From contig CACIXR010000001.1 of NCBI GenBank assembly GCA_902590695.1, forward strand, positions 56,335-120,334: a stretch of DNA of 64,000 bases, written 5' to 3'. Position 1 is the first letter of the stretch. The number at the start of each line of letters is the position of its first letter. Both the position numbers and the translations under genes were made by a program. The notes under the pieces were generated by a model that worked only from the letters and a program-made list of their open reading frames with translations, did not search any database and had not been told where the DNA came from. The DNA is from an uncultured Alphaproteobacteria bacterium. Its GTDB lineage: Bacteria; Pseudomonadota; Alphaproteobacteria; HIMB59; GCA-002718135. Of the stretch, positions 17,796 through 37,186 are shown one piece after another.

Positions 17796-17834
17796 ACTAT
17801 TCCATTTTTTACAATTGATTTATAGAAACAACTT

Positions 17835-18986: not shown

Positions 18987-19098
18987 ATTTTGCTTCGCTA
19001 TTGAATTAGTGCGATAATTTTACAACCTAATTCCCAATATTTCTCCTTGTTTTAAATACCCATTCTTGCTAGGAAAATATTATTTATAGGAGGAATGC

Positions 19099-20064: not shown

Positions 20065-20071
20065 ATATCTT

Positions 20072-20105
20072 AACCAGGCTCTTTAAAAAGAGCCTGGTTT
20101 TTTTT
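20072..20105 (+). terminator. rho-independent terminator / intra-operon attenuator
   Basis: A perfect 13-nt inverted repeat, AACCAGGCTCTTT (20072-20084) with AAAGAGCCTGGTT (20087-20099); the innermost A:T pairs must open to form the loop. A run of eight T (20098-20105) starts in the right arm. Confidence 0.9.
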
Positions 20106-20119
20106 AAAATAAAAAAAAT

Positions 20120-21100: not shown

Positions 21101-21102
21101 AG

Positions 21103-21840: not shown

Positions 21841-21854
21841 TTTTGGGAGGAATT

Positions 21855-22790
21855 ATGATTAGTGATGCGCAAATAAAACAATATAACGAAGAAGGTTATA
21901 CGATCGTTGAAAATGTTTTTAGTATGGATGAGTTAAATCCAATATTAAATGAATTTGAAGAAATTGTTGATGATTTTGCAGAAAAAGCTTTTCAAGCTGG
22001 AAAAATTACAAACAAACATGATGATAAAGATGTTTTTAAAAGACTAGCTGCTCTCGAAAGAGATTTTAAAGGTTCTTCGGTTTTAATTCATCATAGAGGT
22101 GAATTAAAACCAGCACTTGCTAACTTATGGGGATCAAAAAAACTTTTAGATATGGTTGAAAATTGGGTTGGTAAAGATATTTCTGGTCATCCAGTTTGGA
22201 ATATTAGATCTAAAACACCTCAGACAGCTAGGATGACAGTTCCATGGCACCAAGATTCTGCTTATTTAAAAGATGGAGCAGAAAAAACCACTCAGCCTGC
22301 TGCGTGGATTCCATTTATAGATGTAAATAAACATAATGGATGCATGCAAGTTGTTCCTGGGGGACATAGACCAGAAAGAGTTTTAAATCATAAATTAGAA
22401 AAGAAAGATGGTTCAGTAAAAGATTCTTGGTATTTATTTATTGAAGACAAAGATATTCCAGAGGAGAAAGTCGTTACTTGTGAAATGAAGGCTGGTTCAG
22501 TTTTATTTTTACATCAATTAGTTCCTCATCGATCACTTGAAAATTTATCTGAGGATGTAAGATGGAGTGTTGACCTAAGATTTCAAAATCCAAAAGATGA
22601 AGCTGGTTTTCATACTGGTTTGGTTGATCCAATCATAATGAGAAAATCAGAAGACCCAAGCTATACAGCTGATTGGGATTCTTGGTTTAAAGGTTATGAA
22701 GAAGAACACACTAAATTTAGAGGGACTTCAAAAAAAGACCAATTTGACTCCACAGTTGATGGGTCATGGTTAGAGCGTTGGGATAATTAA
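21855..22790 (+). CDS. phytanoyl-CoA dioxygenase (PhyH) family Fe(II)/2-oxoglutarate oxygenase
   Basis: 'YNEEGYTIVENVF' N-terminus, HxD in 'WHQDSAY' and a distal His in 'LVPHRS' forming the facial triad. Start set at ATG 21855 after GGGAGG. Confidence 0.75.
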   Translation: MISDAQIKQYNEEGYTIVENVFSMDELNPILNEFEEIVDDFAEKAFQAGKITNKHDDKDVFKRLAALERDFKGSSVLIHHRGELKPALANLWGSKKLLDMVENWVGKDISGHPVWNIRSKTPQTARMTVPWHQDSAYLKDGAEKTTQPAAWIPFIDVNKHNGCMQVVPGGHRPERVLNHKLEKKDGSVKDSWYLFIEDKDIPEEKVVTCEMKAGSVLFLHQLVPHRSLENLSEDVRWSVDLRFQNPKDEAGFHTGLVDPIIMRKSEDPSYTADWDSWFKGYEEEHTKFRGTSKKDQFDSTVDGSWLERWDN

Positions 22791-22804
22791 TTTAATTATC
22801 AAGC

Positions 22805-23788
22805 ATGGAAATTAATCTCGATGATTGGTACAGACCAGAAGTCGACAGAAAAAAATTAAAAGCCTTAAGTAAAAGAAAAGATTTACCTGGACTAATCCAT
22901 TTCTTCTTTTATTTTTTATCTTTATTTATTTCAGGATATTTAGCATACATTACTTTAGGTACGTGGTGGACATATCTATTCTTTTTTATTTATGGTACAA
23001 TTTACGCGTTCAGTGTAGCAAACTGGCATGAAACTGTTCATCGAACTGCATTCAAGACTCGTTGGATAAATGAATTTTTTTACCACATCAGTTCTTTCAT
23101 GTGTGACTTTGAAGGTTTTAGATGGCGCTGGAGTCATACTTTTCATCATTCAAAAACCATGCAAACAGAAGATGACTATGATCACGAAATACAAGTCTCA
23201 AGACCAATAGAATTATTTGCATTTTTTTTAAATTTTATTCCTCTAACAGATTTATTATACCCACATAAATTAATTAAGTTTGAAGTTCTAAAACATGCTT
23301 TTGGAAAATTCACTCCAGTTATTGATATAACAGCACCTAAAGAAGAAAAGAAAAAAATTCTTTGGAACTCAAGATTATATGTTTTTATTTGGTTAACAGT
23401 TATTGCATATTCTTTTTACTTAGGTTCTTTCTTACCAATAATTTATATTATTTTACCAACTTATATTGGGAAGCCAATTTGGTTTGCTGTTAATGTGACT
23501 CAACATCTAGCTGCTAAAGTTGACACAAAAGATCATCGCTTAAGCACTTACTCTGTGAGAATAAATCCAATATTAAGTTTTTTATATTGGCACATGGAAT
23601 ATCATTTAGAGCATCATATGTTTCCTATGGTGCCTTCATACAATTTAAAAAAATTACGAAAAGAAATTGATAATGAACTACCGAAACCATTTAGTAGTCT
23701 TTTTGATTTTTATAAAAAAGTTTTGCCAGCTGTCATAGCTTTGGCTACTGATCAAAATAAATATTATAAAGTGAAGTTAAATAATTAA
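22805..23788 (+). CDS. membrane fatty-acid-desaturase-family di-iron protein
   Basis: Three His boxes (HETVH, HTFHH, HLEHH) and hydrophobic helices. Confidence 0.75.
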   Translation: MEINLDDWYRPEVDRKKLKALSKRKDLPGLIHFFFYFLSLFISGYLAYITLGTWWTYLFFFIYGTIYAFSVANWHETVHRTAFKTRWINEFFYHISSFMCDFEGFRWRWSHTFHHSKTMQTEDDYDHEIQVSRPIELFAFFLNFIPLTDLLYPHKLIKFEVLKHAFGKFTPVIDITAPKEEKKKILWNSRLYVFIWLTVIAYSFYLGSFLPIIYIILPTYIGKPIWFAVNVTQHLAAKVDTKDHRLSTYSVRINPILSFLYWHMEYHLEHHMFPMVPSYNLKKLRKEIDNELPKPFSSLFDFYKKVLPAVIALATDQNKYYKVKLNN

Positions 23789-23789
23789 T

Positions 23790-24215
23790 TTACCAAGAAC
23801 CAGAATTTTCCATAGACTTCCATGGTTCTTGTTCAGGTAAAGATTCCCCTTCTTGTAAGATCTCAATGGAAATTCCATCGGGAGAGCGAACAAAAGCCAT
23901 ATGTCCATCACGAGGTGGTCTATTAATTGTGACGCCGTTTTTCATTAATTTTTCACAAACTTCATAAATATTGTTAACACTGTAAGCTAGATGACCAAAG
24001 TTTCTTCCCCCAGTATATTTTTCAGGATCCCAATTATAGGTTAATTCAAGAAGACCTGTTCTTTCATCGCTATTTTCAGCAGCTAAAAATATTAGGGTAA
24101 AACGACCTTTTTCATTGTCAACACGTCGCACCTCTTTTAATCCAAGTTTGTTACAGTAAAAATCTAGCGAAGTATCAATGTTCTCAACCCTCACCATTGT
24201 GTGTAAATATTTCAT
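23790..24215 (-). CDS. gloA: lactoylglutathione lyase (glyoxalase I)
   Basis: 'HTMVRVENIDTSLDFY...LG' N-terminus and 'ELTYNW...GNFGHLA' are typical of GloA. Start set at ATG 24215. Confidence 0.8.
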   Translation of the reverse strand: MKYLHTMVRVENIDTSLDFYCNKLGLKEVRRVDNEKGRFTLIFLAAENSDERTGLLELTYNWDPEKYTGGRNFGHLAYSVNNIYEVCEKLMKNGVTINRPPRDGHMAFVRSPDGISIEILQEGESLPEQEPWKSMENSGSW

Positions 24216-24308
24216 AAAAACTAACAAATATTAACATAATTTTAAATTTATTTTCAATTGTTATTTTACTTATTTCACGTAAAATAAAATTCAAATAGGG
24301 AGGAATTA

Positions 24309-25841
24309 ATGAAGAAGAAAAAAGAATTAAAAATCTCTAGACGTACAGTTATGAAAGGAGCTCTTGCTGCGGGTGCAATGATGTCAGCAGGATCTATACC
24401 TTCAAAACTATTTGCTGGAGAATTTAATATTCCTGATCCACTAAAACCACTACCAACAACTGGTGGTAATATGCGATGGATTGATAGTGGCGACATGAAA
24501 GGTGTCTTTTGGAAAAAACTTTTTCCAGAATATGCAGCTTCAAGAGGTATCACTATTGAATATGATGGTTTGCCATGGAAAGAAATAAATAAAATTGTTC
24601 CAATTGCTATAAGAAATGGAACTGTTCATGATGTATTCCAATTACCCATAGGAATGGATCCAGGTGTTGCAGTATCTGAAGGTTGGGTGCAACCATGGGA
24701 TGACTACATAGAAAACATCGACGAATGGTTAGGTGCTTTTCCTAGTGGTGTTTATCTTCCTGGTGTCAACCAATTCAATGGAAAGACTTATGGAACATGT
24801 TTAACGGCAAATAAGAGAACGGGAACTTGTCTTTTATATAGTGAGAAATATATGAGTGAGGCTGGTTACGATCCTCAAGCTGGTCGTATGACATATTCTG
24901 AAATCAGAGATGCTGCTAAAAAAATTACTAAAAATGGAAATGGTCAGTATTATGGTTGGATTATTGGTGGTAACCAAGTTAATCGATGGGAAGATGTTGT
25001 CCATACATTTGGACAAGTAGGTGGAGCACATAGTGGAAGAGGTGGTTTTACAAACAGACACATTAACTTCCAAAATGGTAAATTCCAAATTGCATCTGAT
25101 CAATATATGGAAGCAGTTGAACTACTTCTTCAATTAAAATCAGATGGCAGCGCTTTCCCAGGAGTTATGAGTATGAATGCTCCTCAAGCTAGAGCTTTGA
25201 TGCCACAAGGTGCAGCAGGAATGATATTCCAAGGTCCTTGGTGTATTGGAGTTTGGGGAAGAGATGCTCCAAATTGGAAATACGGTATTGCAAGTGAACC
25301 AGTTCCAGATGGAAAAGAAGCACAACCACTTTACATTGCAGAAGGTGGATCAAATACATTTTGGTTAAGTGCTAATAGTACAATGGGTCCATTTGCTGGT
25401 GACCTGATTAGATTTATGGGAACTGAGCAAGGTCAAATTTACTGGGCTCAAACTGTTGGTGCAGCAGATCCTGCTGTTAATCCAGATGCAGTTGCTAAAG
25501 CTGGTTTAACTGGACCATCAGCACAAGCTTTAGCTATGTTTGCTGAAAACATACTTGTTGGACCTAACCCAATTGTAAGAAATAAAGATGTTGGTATTGT
25601 AGCCGCTAAGTCTAGAGTACCAGATCCATCATTAGCTTTAGTTATTCAAGGGTTGTATACTGGACAACTTAAAGGTGTGGAAGCACAGCTTAAAGATTGT
25701 AATCAAAGATACGAAGATGCTCTTGATAAAGCTGTTGAAGAGGCAAGAGCAGACGGTGCTAATGTAACTCGTGATGATTGGGTTTTCCCTAATTGGGATG
25801 TATACTCAAATTACGGTGCTGAAAAGTATCAAGAAATTTAA
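24309..25841 (+). CDS. extracellular solute-binding protein, CUT1-type (family 1), Tat-like signal
   Basis: 510 aa. N-terminus KISRRTVMKGALAAGAMMSAG resembles the twin-arginine consensus. GGGAGG RBS upstream; followed by a hairpin and two MalF/MalG-type permeases. Confidence 0.85.
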   Translation: MKKKKELKISRRTVMKGALAAGAMMSAGSIPSKLFAGEFNIPDPLKPLPTTGGNMRWIDSGDMKGVFWKKLFPEYAASRGITIEYDGLPWKEINKIVPIAIRNGTVHDVFQLPIGMDPGVAVSEGWVQPWDDYIENIDEWLGAFPSGVYLPGVNQFNGKTYGTCLTANKRTGTCLLYSEKYMSEAGYDPQAGRMTYSEIRDAAKKITKNGNGQYYGWIIGGNQVNRWEDVVHTFGQVGGAHSGRGGFTNRHINFQNGKFQIASDQYMEAVELLLQLKSDGSAFPGVMSMNAPQARALMPQGAAGMIFQGPWCIGVWGRDAPNWKYGIASEPVPDGKEAQPLYIAEGGSNTFWLSANSTMGPFAGDLIRFMGTEQGQIYWAQTVGAADPAVNPDAVAKAGLTGPSAQALAMFAENILVGPNPIVRNKDVGIVAAKSRVPDPSLALVIQGLYTGQLKGVEAQLKDCNQRYEDALDKAVEEARADGANVTRDDWVFPNWDVYSNYGAEKYQEI

Positions 25842-25852
25842 ACAAAATATCT

Positions 25853-25883
25853 AAAGGCGAATTTTTTAAATTCGCCTTTTTTT
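25853..25883 (+). terminator. rho-independent terminator / intra-operon attenuator
   Basis: AAAGGCGAATTT (25853-25864) pairs with AAATTCGCCTTT (25868-25879), loop TTT. The seven-T run (25877-25883) ends 3 nt before the permease ATG. Confidence 0.85.
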
Positions 25884-25886
25884 ACT

Positions 25887-26801
25887 ATGCACAAAAAACC
25901 TCTATCTAAACAAATATATGATGCAAGATGGTGTTACTTATTTGTTTTACCATGCTCAATTCTTACAGGAATGTTTGTCATTTATCCGATTGGAATGTCT
26001 TGGTACTTTTCTTTATTAGATTGGAGTGGTTTTACAAAAGAAGCAAAATTTATTGGCCTTCAAAATTATTATGAAGCTGTCAATGATAAATTCTTTTGGG
26101 ATGCATTCATTCGTTCTTTTATTTTTATGTTTGGAACAGTTCCAGTAAAAATTGTTTTAGGATTTATAATTGCAGTATTTTTAAATAATCAAGTTTTGAA
26201 ACTTGCCCCTTTCTTTCGTACTGTAATTTTTATGCCTGTAGTTACTGCAATTGCTATCATTGGTATTGTAATGACTTTTGTTTTTAGTCCTTTTAATGGA
26301 CCTGCTAATAAATTTTTAATGTCTACTAATTTAACTTCTGCTCCAATTGATTTTCTTGGAAACCCAGATACGGTGCTTCCAACTGTAATGGGAGTATATG
26401 TTTGGAAATGGCTAGGGATAACCATGATGTATTGGCTTGCTGCCTTACAAACAGTCCCGCAAGATGTTTACGATGCTGCAAAAATTGATGGTGCTGAAGG
26501 ATATAGATTATGGATCCATATTATTTTACCAATTGTACTACCTTTTGCTATTGTCATTATTCTTGTGGAGGCAGTTGGAGCGCTAAATGTTTTTCCTTTA
26601 ATTGAAACTATGACTGCTGGAGGACCATTCTTTAGTAGTGAAGTTATGGAGATATATATTTTTAGAACAGCTTTTGTGACTGATTCTGGCACAATGCCTA
26701 GGCTTGGATACGCTTGTGCTGCAGGAGTATTTTGGGGTGTTGCTGTTTTATTTATTACAGTGCTTCAGGGATTATGGATGAGGAGAACTCGAAGAATATG
26801 A
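25887..26801 (+). CDS. carbohydrate ABC transporter permease (MalF/UgpA-type)
   Basis: Six or more TM segments and the EAA loop 'YDAAKIDGAEGYRLWIHIILP'. Confidence 0.88.
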   Translation: MHKKPLSKQIYDARWCYLFVLPCSILTGMFVIYPIGMSWYFSLLDWSGFTKEAKFIGLQNYYEAVNDKFFWDAFIRSFIFMFGTVPVKIVLGFIIAVFLNNQVLKLAPFFRTVIFMPVVTAIAIIGIVMTFVFSPFNGPANKFLMSTNLTSAPIDFLGNPDTVLPTVMGVYVWKWLGITMMYWLAALQTVPQDVYDAAKIDGAEGYRLWIHIILPIVLPFAIVIILVEAVGALNVFPLIETMTAGGPFFSSEVMEIYIFRTAFVTDSGTMPRLGYACAAGVFWGVAVLFITVLQGLWMRRTRRI

Positions 26802-27649
26802 GTAGTTACTTAAATTTTATTGCTGAAAAAAACCAAGTTAAATATTTAATTATAACTATAGCTTTTATTATTTTCTCTTTCTTTTGGATCTATCCATTAC
26901 TGTGGGTACTTTCAGCCTCTTTCAAAACAGATTTTGAAATTTGGGGAGGCTTAGGCTTAATCCCTGACCGGCTTGTTTGGGAAAATTTTGAAAGAGCATG
27001 GTTTGGTGCAAATATGGGTAGGTATTTTTTTAATACCCTTATTATTACAGTTGTTTCTGTAATTATAGTTGTCGTAACAACTGGTATGTTTGGTTACGTA
27101 ATTGGAAGATATTCATTTCCAGGAAAAAAAATACTTATTGGAATTTTAATTAGTACAATTTTTATTCCTCAAGGTTACACAATTATTCCTGTTTTTGATT
27201 TATTAAATAATTTGAATATTTCTAAAAACTTAATTGGACTAACACTCGCAACAGCAGGACACACCCCTGTAATTTATATTTTATTGTTTGCAGGATATTT
27301 TTCGAGAGTTCCTGTAGAGCTCGAAGAAGCAGCTAAGATGGATGGAGCGGGTTTTGTTCGAACATTTATTTCAATTATGTTACCTTTAACCAAACCAGTA
27401 GTAGCCACTGTTTCTATTTTACAAGTTTTACATGCATGGAATGATTTTTTATTACCAGTCGTCATCACATTAGGTAATCCGGATATACGAACACTATCCG
27501 TCGGTGTGTACGCTTTTAAAGGAGAATACTTTGTCGATTGGTCTGGTATGGCAGCTGCATCTGTTATAACTATTTTGCCTATAATTATTTTATTTTTGTT
27601 TATGCAAAAATATTTTGTTGAAGGTGTTCAAGGAGCTGTAAAAGGGTAA
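26798..27649 (+). CDS. carbohydrate ABC transporter permease (MalG/UgpE-type)
   Basis: EAA loop 'EEAAKMDGAGFVRTFISIMLP'. Start set at ATG 26798, giving an ATGA overlap with the upstream stop, instead of the track's 26714. Confidence 0.88.
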   Translation: MSSYLNFIAEKNQVKYLIITIAFIIFSFFWIYPLLWVLSASFKTDFEIWGGLGLIPDRLVWENFERAWFGANMGRYFFNTLIITVVSVIIVVVTTGMFGYVIGRYSFPGKKILIGILISTIFIPQGYTIIPVFDLLNNLNISKNLIGLTLATAGHTPVIYILLFAGYFSRVPVELEEAAKMDGAGFVRTFISIMLPLTKPVVATVSILQVLHAWNDFLLPVVITLGNPDIRTLSVGVYAFKGEYFVDWSGMAAASVITILPIIILFLFMQKYFVEGVQGAVKG

Positions 27650-27651
27650 AT

Positions 27652-29193
27652 ATGAAAAGGCCAAATATTTTATTAATAACTTCTGATCAACAGCATCACG
27701 ATACTATTGGAAAATTTAATTCAAAAATACAAACACCGTATTTAGATAAGCTTTGTGATGAGGGAATGAATTTTACAAGAGCTTATTGTCCATCACCAGT
27801 TTGCACACCATCAAGAGCAAGTATTATTACTGGACAATATCCGTCTTCTCATGGAGCATGGACAATTGGAGTTAAATTAGATGAAGAAGTAGAAACTATT
27901 GGAGAACTTTTATACAAAAAAGGATATTCAACAGGGTTAATAGGTAAAGCACATTTCCAGCCATTAACTTCAGTCCCAGGTCAGGAATCTATAGAAGGAC
28001 AACCAACGTTAAGAGATTTAGAATTTTGGAAAAATTTTAAAGGACCTTGGTATGGCTTTGAACATATTGAGCTAGCACGTAATCATGCTGATGAAAGTCA
28101 TGTGGGTCAACATTATGCAATTTGGATGGAACAAAACGGTCTTAGTGATTGGAAAGAATATTTTCAACCAGTGCCTGGTGAAACTTCTAAATATGCTCCT
28201 CCAATTGCTCGTGAATATGATTACTGGGCAAGACCGGATAGAGTTTGGAAGTTAAACGAAAAACATCACTACACTAATTGGACAGCCGAAAGATCAATTG
28301 AATTTTTAGATCAACAAAAAGATGACAAGCCATTTTTTCTTTGGACAAGCTTTCAGGATCCACATCCACCATATGTATTAAGTGAACCATGGGCATCAAT
28401 GTATAATTCAGAAGACATGTCTCCTGGAACGTTAAAAGAAGGTGAACACGAATTAAATCCACCACATTTTGGAAAAACACAAACGACAAATCCTGATTTT
28501 GAAAATTGGCATTCACCATTTAACGCTCACGGTTGCATGAGTCATCTGTATCCTATGGAAGAATTAAAAAAAGACATGGCAATTTATTATGGCATGGTTA
28601 GTTTTATGGACAAGAATATTGGAAAAATAATTAATAAGTTAGATCAAATGGGTGAACTTGATAATACCATAATTATTTTTACTACTGATCATGGTCACTT
28701 TATAGGACAGCACGGTTTAATTGCTAAAGGACCATTCCACTATGAAGATATGCTACGTTTACCATTTATTGTTAGATGGCCTGATAAAGTTCCTCAAAAC
28801 TCATCATCTTCATCTTTATTGAGTTTAGTTGATCTAGCGCCAACATTTTTAAAAGTCGCGGGCATTGATATACCAACCCAAATGCAAGGAGTGGATCAAA
28901 CGGATGTATTTTATGGCAACAAGGAAAGTATCCGTTCACATATATTTGTTGAAAATAGACATAATCCAAGAATGCCACATTTAAAAACTTACATAAATGA
29001 TAATTATAAAATTTCTATTTATCGAGAGGCTAACTACGGTGAACTTTTTGATTTAGAAAATGATCCAAACGAATATAATAATTTATGGGATAATACGAAC
29101 GCACAAACATTAAAAAAAGATTTATTATTTAAGTTTGCGCAAGCCACATTAAAAGATGAAACATCAAAAATGAAAAGAGTTTCAGGTGCTTAA
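27652..29193 (+). CDS. sulfatase (S1/arylsulfatase family, Cys-type), no signal peptide
   Basis: N-terminal metal site 'ILLITSDQQ', formylglycine motif C51-T-P-S-R-ASIITG (Cys codon at 27802-27804), 'TTDHGH', and C-terminal 'LFDLENDPNEYNNL'. Confidence 0.9.
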   Translation: MKRPNILLITSDQQHHDTIGKFNSKIQTPYLDKLCDEGMNFTRAYCPSPVCTPSRASIITGQYPSSHGAWTIGVKLDEEVETIGELLYKKGYSTGLIGKAHFQPLTSVPGQESIEGQPTLRDLEFWKNFKGPWYGFEHIELARNHADESHVGQHYAIWMEQNGLSDWKEYFQPVPGETSKYAPPIAREYDYWARPDRVWKLNEKHHYTNWTAERSIEFLDQQKDDKPFFLWTSFQDPHPPYVLSEPWASMYNSEDMSPGTLKEGEHELNPPHFGKTQTTNPDFENWHSPFNAHGCMSHLYPMEELKKDMAIYYGMVSFMDKNIGKIINKLDQMGELDNTIIIFTTDHGHFIGQHGLIAKGPFHYEDMLRLPFIVRWPDKVPQNSSSSSLLSLVDLAPTFLKVAGIDIPTQMQGVDQTDVFYGNKESIRSHIFVENRHNPRMPHLKTYINDNYKISIYREANYGELFDLENDPNEYNNLWDNTNAQTLKKDLLFKFAQATLKDETSKMKRVSGA

Positions 29194-29209
29194 TTAAGAA
29201 AGAATAAAG

Positions 29210-30709
29210 ATGAGAATTTTATATGTAGACATAGACTCTTTAAGACCTGATCATTTAGGATGCTATGGTTATCATAGAAACACGTCTCCTACGATTGACT
29301 CTATAGCAAAAGAAGGGGTCAAGTTTACAAATTTTTATTCGACTGACACACCATGCCTACCTAGTAGAACTGCTTTGTTTGGAGGTAATTTTGGTTTCAA
29401 AACTGGAGTTGTTAATCATGGCGGTGAATTCTCTGATATTGCTCCTAGAAAAAATATTTGGAATAGAGAATTTAAAGGTGGTTTAAGAGGAGAATATGCT
29501 TTTACATCTCTTGGAAAAGTTCTTCGAGATGCAGGATATTATACAGCAAGTATTAGCCCCTTTCCTGAAAGACATACAGCTTATCAAGTTTGGTTTGGTT
29601 TTACCGAAACATATGACACTGGAAAAGGTGGTTTAGAAAATGCTGATGAAGTCTACCCTGTTATAAAAAAGTGGTTAGAAAATAATGGAGAAAAAGAAAA
29701 TTGGTTCTTACATGTAAATATGTGGGATCCTCATACTCCGTATGATACGCCTGAAGACTTTGGAAATCCTTTTAAAGATGATCCTATTGAAGAATGGGTG
29801 ACAGAAGAATTAATTAAAAAACAAAGGAATAGTTTCGGACCGCATAGTGCTAGAGAAGTTCCAGGATTTGATGAAGATCTTGGAGGAAAGTATACCATGG
29901 GAGTGGGTGAAATTAAAAATACTTCTGATGCAAAAGAACAAATTGATGCATATGATACTGGAATTAAATACGCAGATTTTTATTTAAATAAAGTTTTTGA
30001 AGATTTAAAAAAAATGAATCTTTGGGATGATACTGCAATAATTATTTCAGCAGACCACGGAGAAAATCAAGGCGAGTTAAATGTTTGGGGAGATCACCAA
30101 ACAGCTGATCATATAACTAATAGAGTTCCATTAATAATTAGATGGCCGGGGATAACAGATACAAATAAAGGAAGTACTGTAGAGAATAAATTTTATAATT
30201 TAGATTTAACTTCAACTATTTCTCAAATTACTTCATCTTCACAACCTGACAGATGGGACGGTATTAATTTCACTGAAAATTTAACTAATAGTAAATCATC
30301 AAATGGAAGAGATTATTTAGTTATTAGTCATGGTGCTTGGAGTTGTCAAAGATCTGTAAGATGGGATAATTGGTTACTGATAAGAACGTACGATACTGGT
30401 TTAAAAGATTTTCCAAAATATATGCTTTTTGATATTGAAAAGGATCCGCATGAGTTGAATAACCTAGCAGATCAGCATAAAGATCTCGTAGCGCATGGAA
30501 TGTTTTTAATTGATGAGTGGATTGAAGAAAATATGTATGAGGCTGATAGAGGAGATCCACTTCAAGGTGTAATTAGAGAAGGCGGTCCTCATCATGCAAA
30601 TATTTATTCAAAAGTCTGGAATACATATGTTGAGCGTCTTGAAAAAACAGATAGAAAAAAACACGCTGACAATCTTAGGAAATATAAAGGAAAACCTTTT
30701 AGTAAATAA
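29210..30709 (+). CDS. sulfatase (S1 family, Cys-type), no signal peptide
   Basis: 'YVDIDSLRPDHLG', C-L-P-S-R-TALFGG motif, 'SADHGE', and C-terminal 'LFDIEKDPHELNNL'. Confidence 0.85.
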   Translation: MRILYVDIDSLRPDHLGCYGYHRNTSPTIDSIAKEGVKFTNFYSTDTPCLPSRTALFGGNFGFKTGVVNHGGEFSDIAPRKNIWNREFKGGLRGEYAFTSLGKVLRDAGYYTASISPFPERHTAYQVWFGFTETYDTGKGGLENADEVYPVIKKWLENNGEKENWFLHVNMWDPHTPYDTPEDFGNPFKDDPIEEWVTEELIKKQRNSFGPHSAREVPGFDEDLGGKYTMGVGEIKNTSDAKEQIDAYDTGIKYADFYLNKVFEDLKKMNLWDDTAIIISADHGENQGELNVWGDHQTADHITNRVPLIIRWPGITDTNKGSTVENKFYNLDLTSTISQITSSSQPDRWDGINFTENLTNSKSSNGRDYLVISHGAWSCQRSVRWDNWLLIRTYDTGLKDFPKYMLFDIEKDPHELNNLADQHKDLVAHGMFLIDEWIEENMYEADRGDPLQGVIREGGPHHANIYSKVWNTYVERLEKTDRKKHADNLRKYKGKPFSK

Positions 30710-30721
30710 ATCTAAATCATA

Positions 30722-32089
30722 ATGAATATTAAATCTAAACCAAATATTATTGTATTTTTTACTGATCAACAACGTTGGGATACTTCTGGTTTACATGGCA
30801 ATCCATTATCCTTGATGGAGAACTTCGATCATTATGCAGTCGAAGGTACACATCTTTATAATTCATTTACATGCCAACCAGTTTGCGGGCCTGCAAGAGC
30901 ATCATTACAATCAGGAATGTATGCAACAAAAACTGGATGTTTTAAAAATAGAATACCTTTAAAAAAAAATATTAAAACTCTTGCAAAATATTTATCTAAA
31001 GAAGGATATGCTACTGGTTATATTGGAAAGTGGCACCTCGGCTCATCTGAACCTGTTAAAAAAGAGGATAGAGGTGGGTATGATTATTGGTTAGGATCAA
31101 ATCTATTAGAATTTACTTCTGATGCTTATGAAACATATGTTTATGATGGACAAAATAAAAAAGTATTTCTTCCAGGATATAGAGTTGATGCAATAACTGA
31201 TGCAGCTATAAATTTTATAAAACTAAATCAAAAAAAACCATTTTTTCTTTTCGTTTCTCTTATTGAGCCACATCATCAAAATAATACAGATGATTATCCA
31301 CCACCTATTGGATACAGAGAAAAATATACAGGCAAGTGGTCACCACCAGATCTTTCTTCTCTAGTTGGATCTTCTCCTCGGCATTTAGGTGGTTACTATG
31401 GAATGGTGAAGAGAATAGATGAAGCTTATGGCAGAATGATTGATGTCATCAAAAGTTTAAAATTATTTGATGATAGTGCCATTATTTTTACATCTGATCA
31501 TGGAAATAATTTTAAAACACGAAATAGAGAATATAAACGTTCATGTCATGAAAGTTCAATACGAGTTCCTACATCTTTGATTGGAAATGTTTTTCAGCAA
31601 GGTGGACGTATAAAAGAATTAACTAACATTCTAGATATTCATGCAACAATATTGGACTTAGCAAAAGTTAAAAACACTTCTCATTGTGATGGTAGATCAG
31701 TATTGCCTTTAGTGAATAAAACTTCCAAAAAATGGGAAAACGAAATTTTTATTCAAATTAGCGAAAGTCAATTAGCTAGAAGTTTAAGAACTGAAAAATG
31801 GAAATATTGTATTGCTGACCAAGATTCTAATGGAAGTGAAAAACCTTCATCAAATCAATACACAGAAACAAATCTATACGATCTTGATGCTGATCCCTAC
31901 GAATTAAATAACTTAATTGGTATTAGTACCTATGATGAAATAGTAAACTCCCTAAGAAAAAAGATTAAAAGTAAAATTAAAAAAATTGAAAATATTACAA
32001 CTAAAATTACAAAAGCTAAAAATGTAAATAATCCTGGTCAAATGGGATTAAATCCTGATTCTTTTCACAGATTAAAGAAAAAACTTTAA
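30722..32089 (+). CDS. sulfatase (S1 family, Cys-type), no signal peptide
   Basis: 'IIVFFTDQQRWD', C-G-P-A-R-ASLQSG motif, 'TSDHGN', and C-terminal 'LYDLDADPYELNNL'. Confidence 0.9.
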   Translation: MNIKSKPNIIVFFTDQQRWDTSGLHGNPLSLMENFDHYAVEGTHLYNSFTCQPVCGPARASLQSGMYATKTGCFKNRIPLKKNIKTLAKYLSKEGYATGYIGKWHLGSSEPVKKEDRGGYDYWLGSNLLEFTSDAYETYVYDGQNKKVFLPGYRVDAITDAAINFIKLNQKKPFFLFVSLIEPHHQNNTDDYPPPIGYREKYTGKWSPPDLSSLVGSSPRHLGGYYGMVKRIDEAYGRMIDVIKSLKLFDDSAIIFTSDHGNNFKTRNREYKRSCHESSIRVPTSLIGNVFQQGGRIKELTNILDIHATILDLAKVKNTSHCDGRSVLPLVNKTSKKWENEIFIQISESQLARSLRTEKWKYCIADQDSNGSEKPSSNQYTETNLYDLDADPYELNNLIGISTYDEIVNSLRKKIKSKIKKIENITTKITKAKNVNNPGQMGLNPDSFHRLKKKL

Positions 32090-32120
32090 TAATTTTTTTT
32101 TTCGTATTAATCTAATTTTT

Positions 32121-33623
32121 ATGAAAACAGTTTTTCTTTTATTTGATTCATTAAATAAAAGAATGTTAAATTCTTACGGTGGTAAATATATTGAAACACC
32201 AAATTTTAACCGATTAGCAGAAAGATCAATTCAGTTTAATAATCATTATATTGGTAGTATGCCCTGTATGCCGGCAAGACGCGATATGCACTCGGGACGC
32301 TTAAGCTTTCTGCACCGTGCATGGGGTCCTTTAGAACCATTTGATAATTCATTTCCAGAAATTTTAAGACTTAATAACACCTATACTCATCTTGTGACTG
32401 ATCATTATCATTACTTTGAAGATGGTGGCGCAACGTATCATAATAGATTTAATTCTTGGGATTTTATTAGAGGACAAGAGAGTGACCCATGGAAAGCTAT
32501 GGTTCAACCGCCTCTTGAAAAACTGAGAGAAAAATATCATCAATCTCAATTAAATTTAACTAATAGGGAAACTGGTTATTATCACTACGCAATCAATAGT
32601 GAGTTTATTAAAGAAGAAAAAGATTTTCCTTCCGTCAAATGCTTTCAATCTGGATTAGATTTTATTAATATCAATAAAGATGCAGATAACTGGTTCCTTC
32701 AATTGGAAACTTTTGATCCACATGAACCTTTCTTTGCACCTGAGCGCTTTAGAGAAAAATTAAAAACTAATTACAAAGGTCCAAGATTAGATTGGCCTCA
32801 ATATGACAGAGTTAAAGAAACAGATGATGAAGTTGCGGAATTAAAAGCCAACTACATTGCTTTAATTGGTTTATGTGATTACTTGTTAGGTACTGTCTTG
32901 GATTATTTTGATGAAAATAATTTATGGGATGACACTGCATTGGTTTTAACTACAGATCATGGCTTCATGCTCGGAGAACATGATTGGTGGGCTAAAAATA
33001 GAATGCCTTTATATAATGAAATTGCAAATATTCCGTTCTATTTCTATCATCCTGAATTTAAAGATAATTCTGGTCAACAAAGAAATGTTGTAACGCAAAA
33101 TATTGATCTGATGCCTACGTTTATGACAATGCACGGCCATGATGTTCCTAAAGAAGTAAAAGGTAAGTCCATTTTAAATTTTTTAGATAAAGATAATGAA
33201 AATGATTATTTTGCTTTGTATGGATATTGGGGCGGTGGAATTAATATCTCTGATGGAAAATATTCGTATTTTCACTATCCTGAAAATTTTGATCAGTATG
33301 ATAGAAGTAGATTTCAATATACTTTAATGCCTACAAATATGAGACAATTTTTTTCACAAGAAGAGTTACAAACAGCAACTATGCATGAGCCTTTTGATTT
33401 TACTAAGAATATACCAGTTATGAAAGTAAACAGAATACTTCGAAAGACTGATCCACATAGATCTTTAGAAGATACTAAAAGTGCGCTCTATGATTTAAAA
33501 AAAGATCCTGGTCAATTAAGCCCAGTAAATGATATTGCTTTAATGACTAAATATAAAAATATCATGTTGGAAGAAATTAAAAATTACGATCCTCCAGAAG
33601 AATTATTAAAAAATTATTTCTAA
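32121..33623 (+). CDS. sulfatase (S1 family, Cys-type), no signal peptide
   Basis: 'LLFDSLNKR', C-M-P-A-R-RDMHSG motif, 'TTDHGF', and C-terminal 'LYDLKKDPGQL'. Confidence 0.85.
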   Translation: MKTVFLLFDSLNKRMLNSYGGKYIETPNFNRLAERSIQFNNHYIGSMPCMPARRDMHSGRLSFLHRAWGPLEPFDNSFPEILRLNNTYTHLVTDHYHYFEDGGATYHNRFNSWDFIRGQESDPWKAMVQPPLEKLREKYHQSQLNLTNRETGYYHYAINSEFIKEEKDFPSVKCFQSGLDFININKDADNWFLQLETFDPHEPFFAPERFREKLKTNYKGPRLDWPQYDRVKETDDEVAELKANYIALIGLCDYLLGTVLDYFDENNLWDDTALVLTTDHGFMLGEHDWWAKNRMPLYNEIANIPFYFYHPEFKDNSGQQRNVVTQNIDLMPTFMTMHGHDVPKEVKGKSILNFLDKDNENDYFALYGYWGGGINISDGKYSYFHYPENFDQYDRSRFQYTLMPTNMRQFFSQEELQTATMHEPFDFTKNIPVMKVNRILRKTDPHRSLEDTKSALYDLKKDPGQLSPVNDIALMTKYKNIMLEEIKNYDPPEELLKNYF

Positions 33624-33683
33624 AAAAAATAAGAGAAATCTAAAGAAATTATCTTGGCTTACAAGAATTGAAAACGAATTATA

Positions 33684-35189
33684 TTAATTAAAATTTCTTT
33701 CATCACCTTTAAATGGAACAACATCACAAGTTTCTTGGTACCATGAAAGCATTTTTTCTTTTAAGTGTTTGAGCTCTGATGCATATTGTGGATCGTCAAT
33801 AACATTATTAATTTCTCCAGGATCTTCAATTAAATTATATAGTTCATCTTTTTCGTAAGCTCTTTTTATATATTTAAATTTTTTATTTCTGCACATTGTT
33901 GCTTTGGTGTGCATTAAAATTTCATCCTCTTTACCTTGTAAGTTTACTCTTGGAAAATATAAGCCATGGGGTAAATTTAAACTTTGACTTTCACTTGCTT
34001 GTCTCTCTAATCTAAGTCTGCCACCTTCAGTAAATACTTCTTCTCTATGATTATCAGTTTTCTGTTCAATAAAATTTTTTATACTTTTGCCAAAATGCCA
34101 ATATGAAGGATCGATATTACTGTAATCATATATGGTTCCAGCGATATCAATTAACTCAACCATTGTATCACTTACACCATTTAATGTATTTTTACTTTTT
34201 GGCGGCTTAATAATAAGAGGAACATTCGTAAGACAATCTTGAAAAGTATTTTGTGTTTTTTCAACTAAATTATAATCACCTGTAAAGTCACCATGATCAG
34301 ATAAAAAAATTATTAAAGTATCATCATATAAATTATTATCTTTAAGTTGATTGACTAGAAGTCCAAATTGATAATCTACCCTTGCACACATACCAAGATA
34401 TACCGCTCGTAATTCATTCCAGCGTTCATCATTCCAATCTTGCATTCTTTGTCCATCCATTATTCCTTTTAAAAGACTTGGCTTATCCTCCCATGTTTTG
34501 TATTGATATCTATTAGGAATTACACTCCGATCAATTGAAGAGAACCATGGATCCTCAACACAGTAAGGGGGATGTGGATAGCCAAGTGGTAGAAATAAAC
34601 AGAATGGTTTTTCTTTTTTATAATCTTTTATAAAATCTAATGCTCCATAAACCATGGACCAATCATCATCGAAATAAATATCTTTATCTTTTTTATCTAA
34701 TTTTCCTTTAAAGAAACTATAATAATTATCTCCATCTTCAGGTCCTCGCCATAATAGATCTCCACCATGTGTACCTGGTTGTTGAGAGTAACCCCATTTT
34801 TGATAATCACTATCCGTTGGTTCAAAGTAAATATCACAATGATTACGATATCCTTCTTGACCTGCTATCAAATCATTTTTTCCACCCCACCAAATAAAGT
34901 AATCTTTATCTTTTAGTTCTGATAAAATACTAGAGTCACCTTGATCTGTATGTAACATATAATGCATTGTTCTATGACCATGAACATGTGGATACCAACC
35001 AGTCATAAATGAACACCGACTTGGAGTACAAACAGTAGCTTGGCAAAAAGCATTCTTAAAAGCTACTGCATCATCTTTAATTATACTATCTAAATTAGGG
35101 GTTTGTGCGCCTGAGTAACCAAGATATCCGAGCATATCACCCCTCCATTGATCCGGATTAAATATTAATATGTTTGGTTTATTCTTCAT
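33684..35189 (-). CDS. sulfatase (S1 family, Cys-type), no signal peptide
   Basis: 'ILIFNPDQWRGD', C-T-P-S-R-CSFMTG motif, 'LSDHGD', and C-terminal 'LYNLIEDPGEINNV'. Convergent with the other four. Confidence 0.9.
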   Translation of the reverse strand: MKNKPNILIFNPDQWRGDMLGYLGYSGAQTPNLDSIIKDDAVAFKNAFCQATVCTPSRCSFMTGWYPHVHGHRTMHYMLHTDQGDSSILSELKDKDYFIWWGGKNDLIAGQEGYRNHCDIYFEPTDSDYQKWGYSQQPGTHGGDLLWRGPEDGDNYYSFFKGKLDKKDKDIYFDDDWSMVYGALDFIKDYKKEKPFCLFLPLGYPHPPYCVEDPWFSSIDRSVIPNRYQYKTWEDKPSLLKGIMDGQRMQDWNDERWNELRAVYLGMCARVDYQFGLLVNQLKDNNLYDDTLIIFLSDHGDFTGDYNLVEKTQNTFQDCLTNVPLIIKPPKSKNTLNGVSDTMVELIDIAGTIYDYSNIDPSYWHFGKSIKNFIEQKTDNHREEVFTEGGRLRLERQASESQSLNLPHGLYFPRVNLQGKEDEILMHTKATMCRNKKFKYIKRAYEKDELYNLIEDPGEINNVIDDPQYASELKHLKEKMLSWYQETCDVVPFKGDERNFN

Positions 35190-35316: not shown

Positions 35317-36462
35317 ATGAAAGTTGGAATTATTGGTTGTGGAAATATTGCTGATATTTATTTTTGTAATTCACAGAAGTACTTTAATAATTTTCAAATT
35401 GTTGCATGTGCCGATATTAAAAATGAAGCTGCAAAAAACTACGCAGAAAAATATGGAGTGGAACAATTATCTGTAGATCAGTTATTATCTAATAAAGAAA
35501 TTGAATTAATTATAAACTTAACAATACCAAATGTTCATTTTGAAGTTTCAAAATCAATTCTTGAATCAGGAAAACATTCTTATTCAGAAAAGCCACTATC
35601 AATAAAGTTTGAACATGGTGAAGAGTTAGTTAAATTAGGAAATTCAAAAGGTTTACATGTTGGTTGTGCACCAGATACATTTCTTGGTGCTGGTATACAG
35701 GAAGCAAAAAAAATTATAGATCAAAATGAGATAGGTAAAATAAATCTTGGAAGTATTTCAATGGGAGTGGCAGGACATGAAATTTGGCATCCTAATCCAG
35801 ATTTTTATTATAAACATGGTGGTGGTCCAATTCTTGATATGGGGCCATATTATTTCACAGCTTTAGTAAACTTACTTGGTCCAGCAAAAAATGTTTTTAC
35901 TCAATCAAGAACAGTTTATCAAAAAAGAGTTATTAATAGTGGTGGTAGACAAGGACAAGAAATAGAAGTTGAAATCCCAACAACATTAGTTTCACAAATA
36001 GAATTTCAGAATGGGGCATTAATTGATTCATTTTTTTCTTTTGATATTTGGAAACACAGTAAAAATCACATTGAGTTATATGGTGATAAAGGTTCGATAA
36101 ATGTTCCTGATCCAAATATGTTTGGTGGTGATATTTTAGTTTGTAGATCAAAAAATGGAGCTTGGGAAAATATAGATACCAAGAATAACCATTTAGGTAA
36201 AATAAATATTAAAAATAAATCTGAAAAAGCTAATGAGTCAGCAGGTATTGCTAACTATAGAGGTATAGGTGTGAGTGAAACAGTTGATGCAATAAAAAAC
36301 AATCGTTTAAATAGATGTAGTGGAGAATTAAGTCTTCACGTTTTAGATATACTAGATAGTATTATTAAATCATCAAAAGAAAAGAAAAAAATAGAACTCA
36401 GAAGTTCTATTAAAAATTTTAATTACTTCTCTGAAGATGAGATTAGTATTTTATTAAAGTGA
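35317..36462 (+). CDS. Gfo/Idh/MocA-family oxidoreductase (ThuB-like partner of the downstream ThuA-like protein)
   Basis: IGCGNIA Rossmann motif and EKP motif (SEKPL). End-to-end paralog of 17835-18986. One nt separates it from the ThuA-like gene. Confidence 0.85.
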   Translation: MKVGIIGCGNIADIYFCNSQKYFNNFQIVACADIKNEAAKNYAEKYGVEQLSVDQLLSNKEIELIINLTIPNVHFEVSKSILESGKHSYSEKPLSIKFEHGEELVKLGNSKGLHVGCAPDTFLGAGIQEAKKIIDQNEIGKINLGSISMGVAGHEIWHPNPDFYYKHGGGPILDMGPYYFTALVNLLGPAKNVFTQSRTVYQKRVINSGGRQGQEIEVEIPTTLVSQIEFQNGALIDSFFSFDIWKHSKNHIELYGDKGSINVPDPNMFGGDILVCRSKNGAWENIDTKNNHLGKINIKNKSEKANESAGIANYRGIGVSETVDAIKNNRLNRCSGELSLHVLDILDSIIKSSKEKKKIELRSSIKNFNYFSEDEISILLK

Positions 36463-36463: not shown

Positions 36464-37186
36464 ATGAATAAAATGAAAAAAGCTCTAATTGTTTATGGAG
36501 GTTGGCCAGGACATGAGCCTGAAAAATGTACTGAAATAATTAAAGGCATGCTGGAGCCTGAAGGATATGAGGTAAGAGCAGAATATCAAACTTCTGCATT
36601 TTCAGAAGACTATGTTCACGAAATGGATTTGTTAATACCTATAGTTACCATGGCTTTTCATTTTGATCCTCGAGGAGAAATAAAAAAAACTGCTGTTAAT
36701 AATGTTATCAAAGCTGTTCATAATGGTTGTGGCCTTGCTGGTCACCACGGCGGAATGTGTGATGCATTTAGGCAGTCAATTGATTGGCAGTTTTTAACAG
36801 GAGGTCAATGGGTAAGTCACCCAAATGGTATTCATGATTATAAAGTAAATATAACAAAAAAAGATGATCCAATCATGGAAGGTATTGAAGATTTTGATTA
36901 TCATTCAGAGCAATATTATATGCATGTTGATCCATTAAATGAAGTTTTGGCAACCACAACTTTTAAAGGTAATGAAGTTTGGAAGCTTGAACAAGAACCT
37001 GATTCATCAAGTGGTGACGCTTATAAAACAGAATGGTTAAAGGGTGTACAAATGCCAGTTGCTTGGAAAAGACGAATTGGGAAAGGTAAAATTTTTTATA
37101 TCTCTCTTGGTCATTTTGCACATGAATTAAACCATCCACAAATGAATAAAATTTATAAACGTGGTTTACTTTGGGCATCAAGATAG
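36464..37186 (+). CDS. ThuA-like domain protein (class I glutamine-amidotransferase-like fold)
   Basis: 'KKALIVYGGWPGHEP', 'GLAGHHGGMCDAFR', 'SEQYYMHVDP.NEVLATTTF', 'VAWKRR.GKGKIFY.SLGH', 'KRGLLWA' match the ThuA family as I recall it. Confidence 0.75.
   Translation: MNKMKKALIVYGGWPGHEPEKCTEIIKGMLEPEGYEVRAEYQTSAFSEDYVHEMDLLIPIVTMAFHFDPRGEIKKTAVNNVIKAVHNGCGLAGHHGGMCDAFRQSIDWQFLTGGQWVSHPNGIHDYKVNITKKDDPIMEGIEDFDYHSEQYYMHVDPLNEVLATTTFKGNEVWKLEQEPDSSSGDAYKTEWLKGVQMPVAWKRRIGKGKIFYISLGHFAHELNHPQMNKIYKRGLLWASR

Follow-up and report, generated by a model that had tools for sequence, protein, structure and literature searches.

Sulfated glycans form a large, slowly degraded pool of marine carbon, and the bacteria usually named as their consumers are Bacteroidota, Planctomycetota and Verrucomicrobiota that export the enzymes needed. 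What does a streamlined gyre bacterium do with five sulfatases that carry no export signal and are encoded directly behind a sugar importer? The question is raised by positions 24309-35189 of a 64,000-nt stretch of contig CACIXR010000001.1 from an uncultured alphaproteobacterium (the whole stretch is called the window below), where open reading frame (ORF) mapping and Pfam searches place a solute-binding protein (SBP), two ATP-binding cassette (ABC) permeases, PermF and PermG, and five PF00884 sulfatases, S1-S5 (Table 1). The answer we favour, and on balance think probable, is that the module scavenges a low-molecular-weight sulfated carbohydrate, which would be imported and then desulfated stepwise in the cytoplasm for carbon. 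Most likely the imported compound is a mono- or oligosaccharide or a glycoside that bears several sulfate groups, possibly based on galactose or a deoxyhexose.

Results

A Sugar-Type Importer Followed by Five Sulfatases

The ORF map is identical to the layout given in a preliminary description of this DNA, in which an SBP with a twin-arginine translocation (Tat) signal and MalF/MalG-type permeases precede four co-directional sulfatases and a fifth, convergent one. PermG is separated from S1 by 2 nt, and gaps of 16, 12 and 31 nt separate S1 from S2, S2 from S3 and S3 from S4. The sulfatases are linked to the sugar importer because these gaps are short (2-31 nt), because the gene order is fixed in 32 sister loci, and because the modelled SBP matches oligosaccharide SBPs. 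The start of PermG at 26798, which gives a 4-nt overlap with PermF, was picked by analogy with gene calls in the sister loci L062 and L063; calls in sister genomes offer 26798 or 26774.

The importer is of the CUT1 type (TC 3.A.1.1), an SBP_bac_1/8 protein of MalE-like fold standing with two MalF/MalG-type permeases. PermF has sub-cut-off partial matches to the NCBIfam models UgpA, GlcT and MalF and is 59-61% identical to its orthologs in Trueperaceae and Phaeobacter, and PermG has partial matches to GlcU, UgpE and MalG. The AlphaFold2 model of the SBP (pLDDT 88.5) has the predicted fold of oligosaccharide SBPs, the only proteins among its Foldseek matches in the PDB: MalE (maltodextrin), RafE (raffinose) and binders of xylo-, cello- and sophoro-oligosaccharides, at TM-scores of about 0.6 and 14-21% identity. 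No close solved relative of the SBP was found. A GGGAGG ribosome-binding site lies 5' of the SBP gene, and the hairpin between the SBP and PermF genes (Table 1) is likely a partial terminator or attenuator that raises the ratio of SBP to permease.

Catalytic Motifs and Sulfatase Families

All five enzymes score well above the PF00884 gathering cut-off (100-191 bits against 25; E 2e-28 to 5e-56) and have SGSH_C tails. A motif alignment bears out the catalytic features first described for them. The C-x-P-x-R formylglycine motif reads CTPSR, CLPSR, CGPAR, CMPAR and CTPSR in S1-S5, the N-terminal metal-binding Asp (residue 8-15) is present in all five as DQ (S1, S3, S5) or DS (S2, S4), and alignment with arylsulfatase A (ARSA) places the 'PH' His equivalent to ARSA His229 and the DHG motif in each. 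The C-terminal motif, given earlier as LYDLxxDPxE, reads approximately (L/F)(Y/F)(D/N)(L/I)xxDPx(E/Q). In the same alignment, signature II (G-K-x-H) is intact in S1 (GKAH) and S3 (GKWH) and altered to GKND in S5; S2 and S4 have lost it or diverged from it.

With pairwise identities of 21-25% the five sulfatases are about equally distant from one another and are evidently old, distinct paralogs. The earlier proposal of two diverged types of old paralogs thus stands in its second part; the two types separate only in the N-terminal metal motif and signature II. Recent tandem duplication is ruled out by the low pairwise identity and by the separate cross-phylum ortholog of each paralog (see below). 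The nearest solved relatives of S1 and S3 are carbohydrate sulfatases (S1_30A and N-acetylglucosamine-6-sulfatase), all of them remote; for S1 these are 9ihk (S1_30A, 1e-47) and 5g2v (N-acetylglucosamine-6-sulfatase, 2e-46). Among 8,000 candidates scored per search, the S1 and S2 families number 5,895 and 5,871 relatives at E<=1e-30, those of S2 being about 495 aa long and mostly from Chloroflexota and Planctomycetota, and the S4 family comprises 439 representative clusters at the same threshold. No exact-sequence record of S1 was found.

Predicted Cytoplasmic Location of the Sulfatases

In-frame stops lie 10, 4, 2, 15 and 4 codons upstream of the S1-S5 start codons, and the Pfam sulfatase domain begins at residue 3-7 in all five. 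Hidden upstream start codons are ruled out by these stops, and since they lie only 2-15 codons before each ATG no signal peptide is encodable, in agreement with the preliminary description. The SBP serves as a positive control for this reading of export signals: its N-terminus, SRRTVMK, is followed by a 16-residue uncharged stretch (h-region), and its match to the Pfam Tat-signal model (21.6 bits) falls just below the 22.7-bit cut-off.

The same arrangement is seen in relatives. Orthologs of the sulfatases in Trueperaceae, Phaeobacter and Marinovum share the start position, and the SBPs of these loci carry RR signals. The lack of a signal peptide is a family trait, because S1 orthologs (57-68% identity, 507-517 aa) and relatives of S2 and S4 align from residue 1; in the S4 family most alignments of nearly full length begin with the first residue of both partners. 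An S1 ortholog (53% identity) is also encoded in the Gram-positive Paenibacillus, beside a glycoside hydrolase. All five sulfatases are predicted to be cytoplasmic, as are the orthologs examined. The formylglycine-generating enzymes (FGEs; PF03781) that adjoin the cassettes of P. inhibens, O. granulosus and Shinella are signal-less as well, and by analogy with them maturation of Cys to formylglycine in the cytoplasm would be feasible.

Conservation and Selection in the Host Lineage

A scan of species-representative genomes with the SBP recovered about 37 single-cell genomes (SAGs) at 88-100% identity, labelled 'uncultured Alphaproteobacteria AG-...' and in one case 'Pelagibacteraceae AG-337-I02'. 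AG-891-K05, AG-891-E15, AG-891-K19, AG-337-I02 and AG-325-F23 are classified as o__HIMB59; f__GCA-002718135; g__AG-337-I02 (supplement of Reintjes et al., 2024; PMC11366302). The host is therefore a member of AEGEAN-169 (order HIMB59), genus AG-337-I02 ('Candidatus Indicimonas'), a lineage noted before for its broadened use of sugars, and not of SAR11 proper. The preliminary description had compared it with SAR11/HIMB59-type genomes and called SAR11-type genomes generally poor in such enzymes; almost all SAR11 genomes and the sister genus 'Ca. Nemonibacter' do have none, but 'Ca. Indicimonas' averages five PF00884 sulfatases per genome (range 2-8) and was termed 'not enriched in sulfatases' (PMC11366302). 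That study gives sulfatase counts with no description of the locus, and in the South Pacific Gyre it finds AEGEAN-169 to make up as much as about 6% of cells. Getz et al. (2023; PMC10308909) report extra sugar ABC transporters and galKMT in AEGEAN-169 and leave sulfatases unmentioned.

In tblastn searches every long-enough sister locus carries GFO1, a CUT2 ABC system, PhyH, a fatty-acid-desaturase-like gene, a glyoxalase, SBP, PermF, PermG and S1-S4 in this order, which is fixed in 32/32 loci reaching S4. Variation begins past S4, where 22 of the 30 loci extending more than 1.5 kb carry S5, 3 carry a GHL6 gene and 5 a second CUT1 SBP. The GHL6 product in the S5 slot is a 686-aa GHL6 + GH42M-like protein, and in some sister loci a PhyH-like dioxygenase and a 92-aa ORF are inserted before S5. 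In two loci (L025 and L030) genes for a GMC oxidoreductase and an HpcH/HpaI aldolase separate S2 from S3. The variable regions are listed in Table 1.

All eight genes are kept by strong purifying selection, because dN/dS (nonsynonymous over synonymous divergence; Nei-Gojobori, four sister genomes) is 0.02-0.07 for each of them, about 0.06 for the SBP, at dS up to about 1.05. Divergence along the locus is mosaic in comparisons with the sister loci L028, L024 and L020: relative to L028, dS is 0.13-0.26 for S1-S3 and 0.8-1.1 for the SBP, the permeases, S4 and S5. This pattern suggests that alleles have recombined at breakpoints inside the operon and that several transporter alleles circulate side by side. 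Clusters at 90% identity hold 788 (SBP), 590 (S1) and 1110 (S2) metagenomic member sequences, and the locus is therefore often recovered in environmental assemblies.

An Old Module Shared Across Phyla

The closest counterpart lies in another phylum. A metagenome-assembled genome (MAG) of Trueperaceae (Deinococcota; L065, GCA_020431825.1) encodes three sulfatases, a LacI regulator, SBP, PermF, PermG, a GH4 glycosidase and two further sulfatases, and reciprocal comparison finds in it one-to-one orthologs of all eight window proteins (Table 1). Its S2 ortholog stands after S1, as in the window, and orthologs of its S3 protein (62-64% identity) adjoin the same SBP family in Thermomicrobiales loci. 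The five-enzyme set is best read as an old co-inherited module and not a local expansion, because each sulfatase has its own ortholog in L065 and the window paralogs share no more than 21-25% identity. The AEGEAN-169 proteins have their nearer relatives in Trueperaceae and not among other Alphaproteobacteria. The G+C content across the carbohydrate island (window 16000-30000) is 0.33-0.37, against 0.25-0.31 in much of the rest. Raised G+C and nearest relatives in Deinococcota together suggest an old horizontal acquisition.

The preliminary description knew of no such architecture in this kind of genome, but it is not peculiar to such genomes: the core cassette of SBP, permeases and S1 turns up commonly among cultured bacteria, marine ones and those of soil alike, in several phyla, including Roseobacters, Rhizobiales, Gammaproteobacteria and Chloroflexota. 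Further Trueperaceae-like MAGs (L035, L038, L039, L059) carry SBP-PermFG-(GH4)-S1-S2, and Thermomicrobiales (L042, L043) and an actinomycete MAG (L054) carry SBP-PermFG with S5- and S3-type enzymes and sometimes GH4; the GH4 gene is present in the L035, L039 and L043 cassettes. Marinovum algicola DG898, Granulosicoccus antarcticus and Leucothrix mucor share the arrangement LysR-SBP-PermFG-S1, a Phaeobacter inhibens plasmid (CP019309) has LysR-FGE-SBP-PermFG-S1-GH4, and Oceanicola granulosus HTCC2516 has GHL6-sulfatase-LysR-SBP-PermFG-MalK-sulfatase-S1-FGE. The conjugative plasmid pF of Shinella sp. WSC3-e (L071, NZ_OZ000536.1 449-21984) combines an FGE, LacI, two CUT1 systems with UgpC-type ATPases and four sulfatases in an island that includes an S1 ortholog (62% identity) and an SBP of the same family as the window SBP. 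The Shinella FGE was detected in the proteome and is the proposed maturase of the acesulfame sulfatase (PMC11500405). S1 orthologs of 57-68% identity and about 510-515 aa lie directly 3' of the permeases in Trueperaceae, Phaeobacter, Marinovum, Granulosicoccus, Leucothrix, Oceanicola and Shinella.

The glycosidases of these relatives bear on the substrate. The GH4 proteins of P. inhibens and Trueperaceae score 643 and 508 bits against an NCBIfam alpha-galactosidase cut-off of 486, and the GHL6 proteins consist of a GHL6 domain and a GH42-type middle domain. By analogy, the GH4, GHL6 and LacI/LysR genes of relatives suggest that the ligand is a sulfated glycoside, and hint that galactose is part of it. 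The earlier statement that the system has no glycoside hydrolase holds for the window but not for the orthologous cassettes, given GH4 in several of them and GHL6 in O. granulosus and in 3/30 sister genomes.

Proposed Pathway and Its Difficulties

In the pathway we propose, the Tat-exported CUT1 SBP would capture a sulfated sugar in the periplasm, and PermF and PermG would import it, driven by an ATPase encoded elsewhere. Five cytoplasmic formylglycine sulfatases, matured by an enzyme encoded outside the window, would each strip a different sulfate ester. The neutral sugar would feed central metabolism as a source of carbon and energy, with the sulfate as waste. A carbohydrate ligand, a regiospecific division of labour among the five enzymes, maturation by an enzyme encoded outside the window and use of the product for carbon are the parts of this scheme that go beyond what the sequence shows. 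Because sat, the gene for the entry step of sulfate assimilation, is missing from HIMB59 (PMC3448164), a role in carbon supply is more plausible than one in sulfur supply, in line with the earlier suggestion that released sulfate would have no nutritional value. Bifidobacterium breve imports GlcNAc-6-sulfate (GlcNAc, N-acetylglucosamine) released by other bacteria and desulfates it intracellularly (PMC7326374), and by analogy the organism of the window may live by scavenging the products of primary degraders.

Several observations weigh against this reading. A MalK/MsiK/UgpC-type ATPase for the importer is absent from the locus and from the 64-kb window, where tblastn gave only weak CUT2/MsbA-type matches. 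CUT1 systems commonly use shared, unlinked ATPases. There is no FGE or anaerobic sulfatase-maturing enzyme (anSME) candidate within the window. Import followed by cytoplasmic desulfation for carbon, as first proposed, is therefore in keeping with the cytoplasmic enzymes and the operonic CUT1 importer but leaves their maturation unexplained. No glycosidase (GH4, GHL6 or classical glycoside hydrolase) is found in the window version of the locus, so the substrate would be a monosaccharide or its cleavage would occur elsewhere. Bacteria from soil and wastewater carry the cassette too (Shinella, Microvirga, Paenibacillus, Thermomicrobiales soil MAGs), and its ligand is therefore not necessarily an algal glycan fragment. 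Among the enzymes, S2 and S4 are without the canonical Lys and His of signature II and S2 also lacks the second Lys, so their chemistry could differ. The nearest solved relatives of S2, S4 and S5 belong to a promiscuous alphaproteobacterial group of arylsulfatases and phosphonate monoester hydrolases (PMH; E 1e-18 to 1e-33). No sulfatase that is close and either solved or named was found for any of the five, all NCBIfam equivalog matches being far below cut-off, and the PDB neighbours are too distant for a substrate or a subfamily to be assigned from them.

Alternative Explanations

The last points lead to the strongest rival, namely that the system imports non-carbohydrate esters such as choline-O-sulfate, aryl, flavonoid or steroid sulfates, or even phosphonate or phosphate mono- and diesters for phosphorus scavenging in phosphorus-poor gyres, with some of the 'sulfatases' being PMH-like. 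It rests on the atypical signature II of S2 and S4, where G-K-x-H is missing, and on the PMH-group neighbours: the best solved relatives of S2, S4 and S5 are 4upk, 4upl, 4uph, 4upi, 2vqr and 2w8s (S5 being nearest to 4uph and 4upi at about 1e-32), PDB matches of the five sulfatases to PMH range from E 1e-11 to 1e-38, and there are weak matches to the Phosphodiest and PehA models. Cytoplasmic formylglycine sulfatases acting on unusual small anions also have a precedent in Rhizobiales, for example the acesulfame sulfatase of Shinella (PMC11500405). However, the SBP is a CUT1 protein with the fold of oligosaccharide binders and not of the OpuAC/ChoX, PhnD, PstS or SsuA type, the signatures of S1 and S3 are fully canonical, and no pho, pst or phn genes adjoin the locus. 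Related cassettes include an alpha-galactosidase-type GH4, GHL6 and LacI. Assignment to the named families fails by wide margins in NCBIfam: the five score 97-190 bits against a cut-off of 900 for PehA/phosphonate monoester hydrolase (NF045661) and 96-198 against 433 for choline sulfatase (TIGR03417), and the best score for the arylsulfatase equivalogs (NF010322, NF052527) is 269 against 481. We regard this alternative as unlikely.

Much less credible is that the sulfatases are dead or moonlighting for want of an FGE, in a decaying, horizontally acquired island. The lack of an FGE or anSME within 64 kb, the G+C content of 0.33-0.37 against 0.25-0.31 in the flanks, and closest relatives in another phylum, consistent with horizontal acquisition, would all fit such decay, but dN/dS of 0.02-0.07 across eight genes at high synonymous divergence, synteny kept in about 37 species-level genomes and intact catalytic motifs speak for maintenance, and E. 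coli is known to mature Cys-type sulfatases without a recognisable FGE. 

A role in acquiring sulfur from organosulfates instead of carbon is slightly less probable still. Its appeal is that an ABC importer with a cytoplasmic Cys-type sulfatase is the classical architecture of the sulfate-starvation system atsRBC-atsA. Against it, the sulfate concentration of seawater is about 28 mM, sat is missing from HIMB59, the SBP belongs to the sugar-type CUT1 proteins and not to the NitT/TauT type, and five distinct sulfatases would be excessive for supplying sulfate. Least probable of all, non-classical export or joint maturation and export with a partner, which would make this an ordinary periplasmic desulfation system, has in its favour the hitch-hiker Tat export that exists in principle and nothing from sequence, and is opposed by S1-S5 that encode no signal peptide, by orthologs that are likewise signal-less (one of them Gram-positive), by the signal-less FGEs adjoining related cassettes and by the placement of the sulfatases 3' of an importer in one operon, which fits intracellular action.

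Neighbouring Genes

Downstream of S5, genes for a DgpA/ThuB-like dehydrogenase (GFO2), a ThuA-like protein and xylose isomerase XylA (Table 1) diverge from it across a shared 127-nt intergenic region. Given this region and their adjacency they are possibly associated with the sulfatase locus, and they were not seen beside the cassette in other phyla. Either these genes or the fucose/rhamnose-type, inositol and galactose genes upstream may, judging from proximity, process the desulfated product.

The upstream region (window 10670-23788) is an inositol/rhizopine-like catabolic neighbourhood. We take it to resemble moc genes, the desaturase-like gene at 22805-23788 being perhaps MocD-like. PhyH-family dioxygenases recur near the module across unrelated genomes, in Marinovum (L067 4231-5076), in sister SAGs (L009 19605-20525) and in the window (21843-22790). 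Further upstream (7870-10609) an SDR, a FAH-family protein and an FMN L-lactate-dehydrogenase-like (LldD-like) gene stand together, the best match of the FAH protein being 2,4-didehydro-3-deoxy-L-rhamnonate hydrolase at 389 bits, under the cut-off of 500. By these matches the set resembles the later steps of a non-phosphorylative L-fucose/L-rhamnose pathway, which may matter here should the cell import a sulfated deoxyhexose. About 17 kb upstream of the locus and unlinked to it, galT and galE (5717-7733, minus strand) score above NCBIfam cut-offs, and their presence is consistent with a galactose-based substrate.

A promoter scan gave no usable signal, with 53 sites where shuffled sequence led one to expect 74, and Rfam searches returned no riboswitch or leader in the window, their sole match being tRNA-Leu at 4541-4625. 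The 3' end of this tRNA-Leu(CAA) gene is overlapped by a maximal ORF on the opposite strand (3385-4581, membrane protein), which probably reflects an over-extended ORF end.

Table 1. Features of the sulfatase locus, its neighbours in the window and the variable regions of sister loci. Window features are numbered from the first nucleotide of the window, variable regions within the sister locus named; the last column gives identity to the ortholog in the Trueperaceae MAG L065.
Feature	Coordinates	Strand	Basis or remark	Identity to L065
Small Rieske/NirD-like ORF	10670-10990
IolD	12038-13897		Above NCBIfam cut-off
Two CUT2 ABC systems	14982-17742; 19099-21840		Second SBP, best partial match rhizopine-catabolism SBP
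GFO1, Gfo/Idh/MocA dehydrogenase	17835-18986		48% identical to GFO2
PhyH dioxygenase	21843-22790
Fatty-acid-desaturase-like gene	22805-23788
SBP, CUT1-type periplasmic solute-binding protein, 510 aa	24309-25841	+	Pfam PF01547/PF13416 (SBP_bac_1/8)	52%
Hairpin, perfect 12-bp stem then T-run	25853-25879	both (palindromic)	Terminator scan; between SBP and PermF genes
PermF, MalF/UgpA/GlcT-like ABC permease, 304 aa	25887-26801	+	Pfam PF00528 (BPD_transp_1)	61%
PermG, MalG/UgpE/GlcU-like ABC permease, 283 aa	26798-27649	+	PF00528 (BPD_transp_1); maximal ORF from 26714	67%
S1, canonical formylglycine-type sulfatase, core enzyme of module, 513 aa	27652-29193	+	PF00884, E 4.5e-56	68%
S2, divergent formylglycine-type sulfatase, DS-type N-terminus, 499 aa	29210-30709	+	PF00884, E 4e-40	61%
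S3, canonical formylglycine-type sulfatase, 455 aa	30722-32089	+	PF00884, E 1.3e-47	56%
S4, divergent formylglycine-type sulfatase, DS-type N-terminus, 500 aa	32121-33623	+	PF00884, E 1.7e-28	45%
S5, formylglycine-type sulfatase, variable slot, convergent with S4, 501 aa	33684-35189	-	PF00884, E 1.5e-33	53%
GFO2, Gfo/Idh/MocA dehydrogenase (DgpA/ThuB-like)	35317-36462	+	Best PDB match DgpA, glycoside 3-oxidase, 6e-19
ThuA-like protein	36464-37186	+	PF06283, 3e-42
Xylose isomerase XylA	37210-38523	+	Above NCBIfam cut-offs
Variable region, sister locus L002	19325-21385
Variable region, sister locus L003	19426-20733
Variable region, sister locus L009	19325-20525
Variable region, sister locus L025	16404-18922

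Discussion

The principle of an importer coupled to a cytoplasmic formylglycine sulfatase is already known from Pseudomonas ats and B. breve ats2, and the sulfatase counts of the host lineage have been published. Pseudomonas atsRBC-atsA, a sulfate-ester ABC importer with a cytoplasmic Cys-type sulfatase, is induced by sulfate starvation and serves sulfur supply. It shares with the window the coupling of an ABC importer to such an enzyme, but its transporter is of the aliphatic-sulfonate/taurine type, whereas that of the window is CUT1 and a sulfur role is unlikely in seawater. The locus does not match an ats-type sulfur-scavenging system, as it has CUT1-type components in place of a NitT/TauT-family SBP and permease. 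The ats2 system of B. breve UCC2003 (Egan et al., 2016, as recounted in PMC7326374) is closer in purpose, pairing a transporter with an intracellular formylglycine sulfatase to gain carbon from a cross-fed sulfated sugar. It comprises only one sulfatase, next to its anaerobic maturase, belongs to a Gram-positive gut bacterium and acts on a monosaccharide; the window, in contrast, has five sulfatases, an SBP-dependent CUT1 importer and no maturase nearby, in an aerobic oligotroph.

The polysaccharide utilization loci (PULs) of Bacteroidota, Planctomycetota and Verrucomicrobiota cluster several regiospecific S1-family sulfatases with the uptake genes for one class of glycan, much as the window locus would, but they combine SusC/D or TonB-dependent uptake, sulfatases exported to the periplasm or surface and many classical glycoside hydrolases. 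The window locus does not qualify as a Bacteroidota-type PUL, as it and its flanks are without SusC/SusD, the sulfatases are signal-less and no classical glycoside hydrolase is present. The arylsulfatase/PMH group (4UPH, 4UPI, 4UPK, 4UPL, 2VQR, 2W8S) resembles S2, S4 and S5 in being signal-less, formylglycine-dependent members of the alkaline-phosphatase superfamily, but the similarity is remote (E 1e-18 to 1e-33) and the physiological substrates of that group are themselves unknown.

The true counterparts are the cassettes of Phaeobacter, Oceanicola, Marinovum, Granulosicoccus, Leucothrix, Shinella and Trueperaceae, which are orthologous and in the same order (SBP 45-52%, permeases 57-67% and S1 57-68% identity). 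They usually carry a LysR or LacI regulator and often an FGE, GH4, GHL6 or a MalK/UgpC ATPase, all absent from the AEGEAN-169 version. The preliminary description had held that a locus both common and already characterised in related genomes would overturn its proposal; the locus is common, and no evidence of its characterisation was found. No published function for any orthologous cassette was found in the literature, and searches on cytoplasmic sulfatases with ABC importers, on GH4 with sulfatases in Rhodobacteraceae and on AEGEAN-169 sulfatases yielded no description of the cassette. What was not found described is the module of this SBP family with sulfatases, its cross-phylum five-enzyme form, the consistently cytoplasmic enzymes and the near-fixation in a streamlined gyre bacterium.

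If the preferred reading of import and cytoplasmic desulfation is true, an abundant free-living oligotroph imports sulfated fragments and strips them inside the cell; as a 'scavenger' it would be a further sink for dissolved organic matter (DOM) that is sulfated, and this would explain why about 0.4% of the genes in a 1.5-Mb genome are spent on sulfatases. The question of the substrate is testable, as the core cassette is present in the easily cultured and genetically tractable Phaeobacter inhibens, Oceanicola granulosus, Marinovum algicola and Shinella, and once answered it would give a function to 'sulfatase-like hydrolase' genes by the thousand.

More speculatively, and only as a tentative extension, the module may be a conserved, horizontally mobile cytoplasmic desulfation regulon for one widespread, multiply sulfated small glycoside, possibly an alpha-galactoside or deoxyhexoside. 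Were this so, glycosidic cleavage would proceed by NAD-dependent oxidation-elimination (GH4 elsewhere, the DgpA/ThuB-like dehydrogenase with ThuA here) and not by classical hydrolases, and the sulfatase subfamilies to which S2 and S4 belong would bind sulfate at a non-canonical site. Given the high frequency of the module in an abundant gyre oligotroph, it would also imply that sulfated small DOM forms a pool so far overlooked, with a guild of specialised scavengers living on it.

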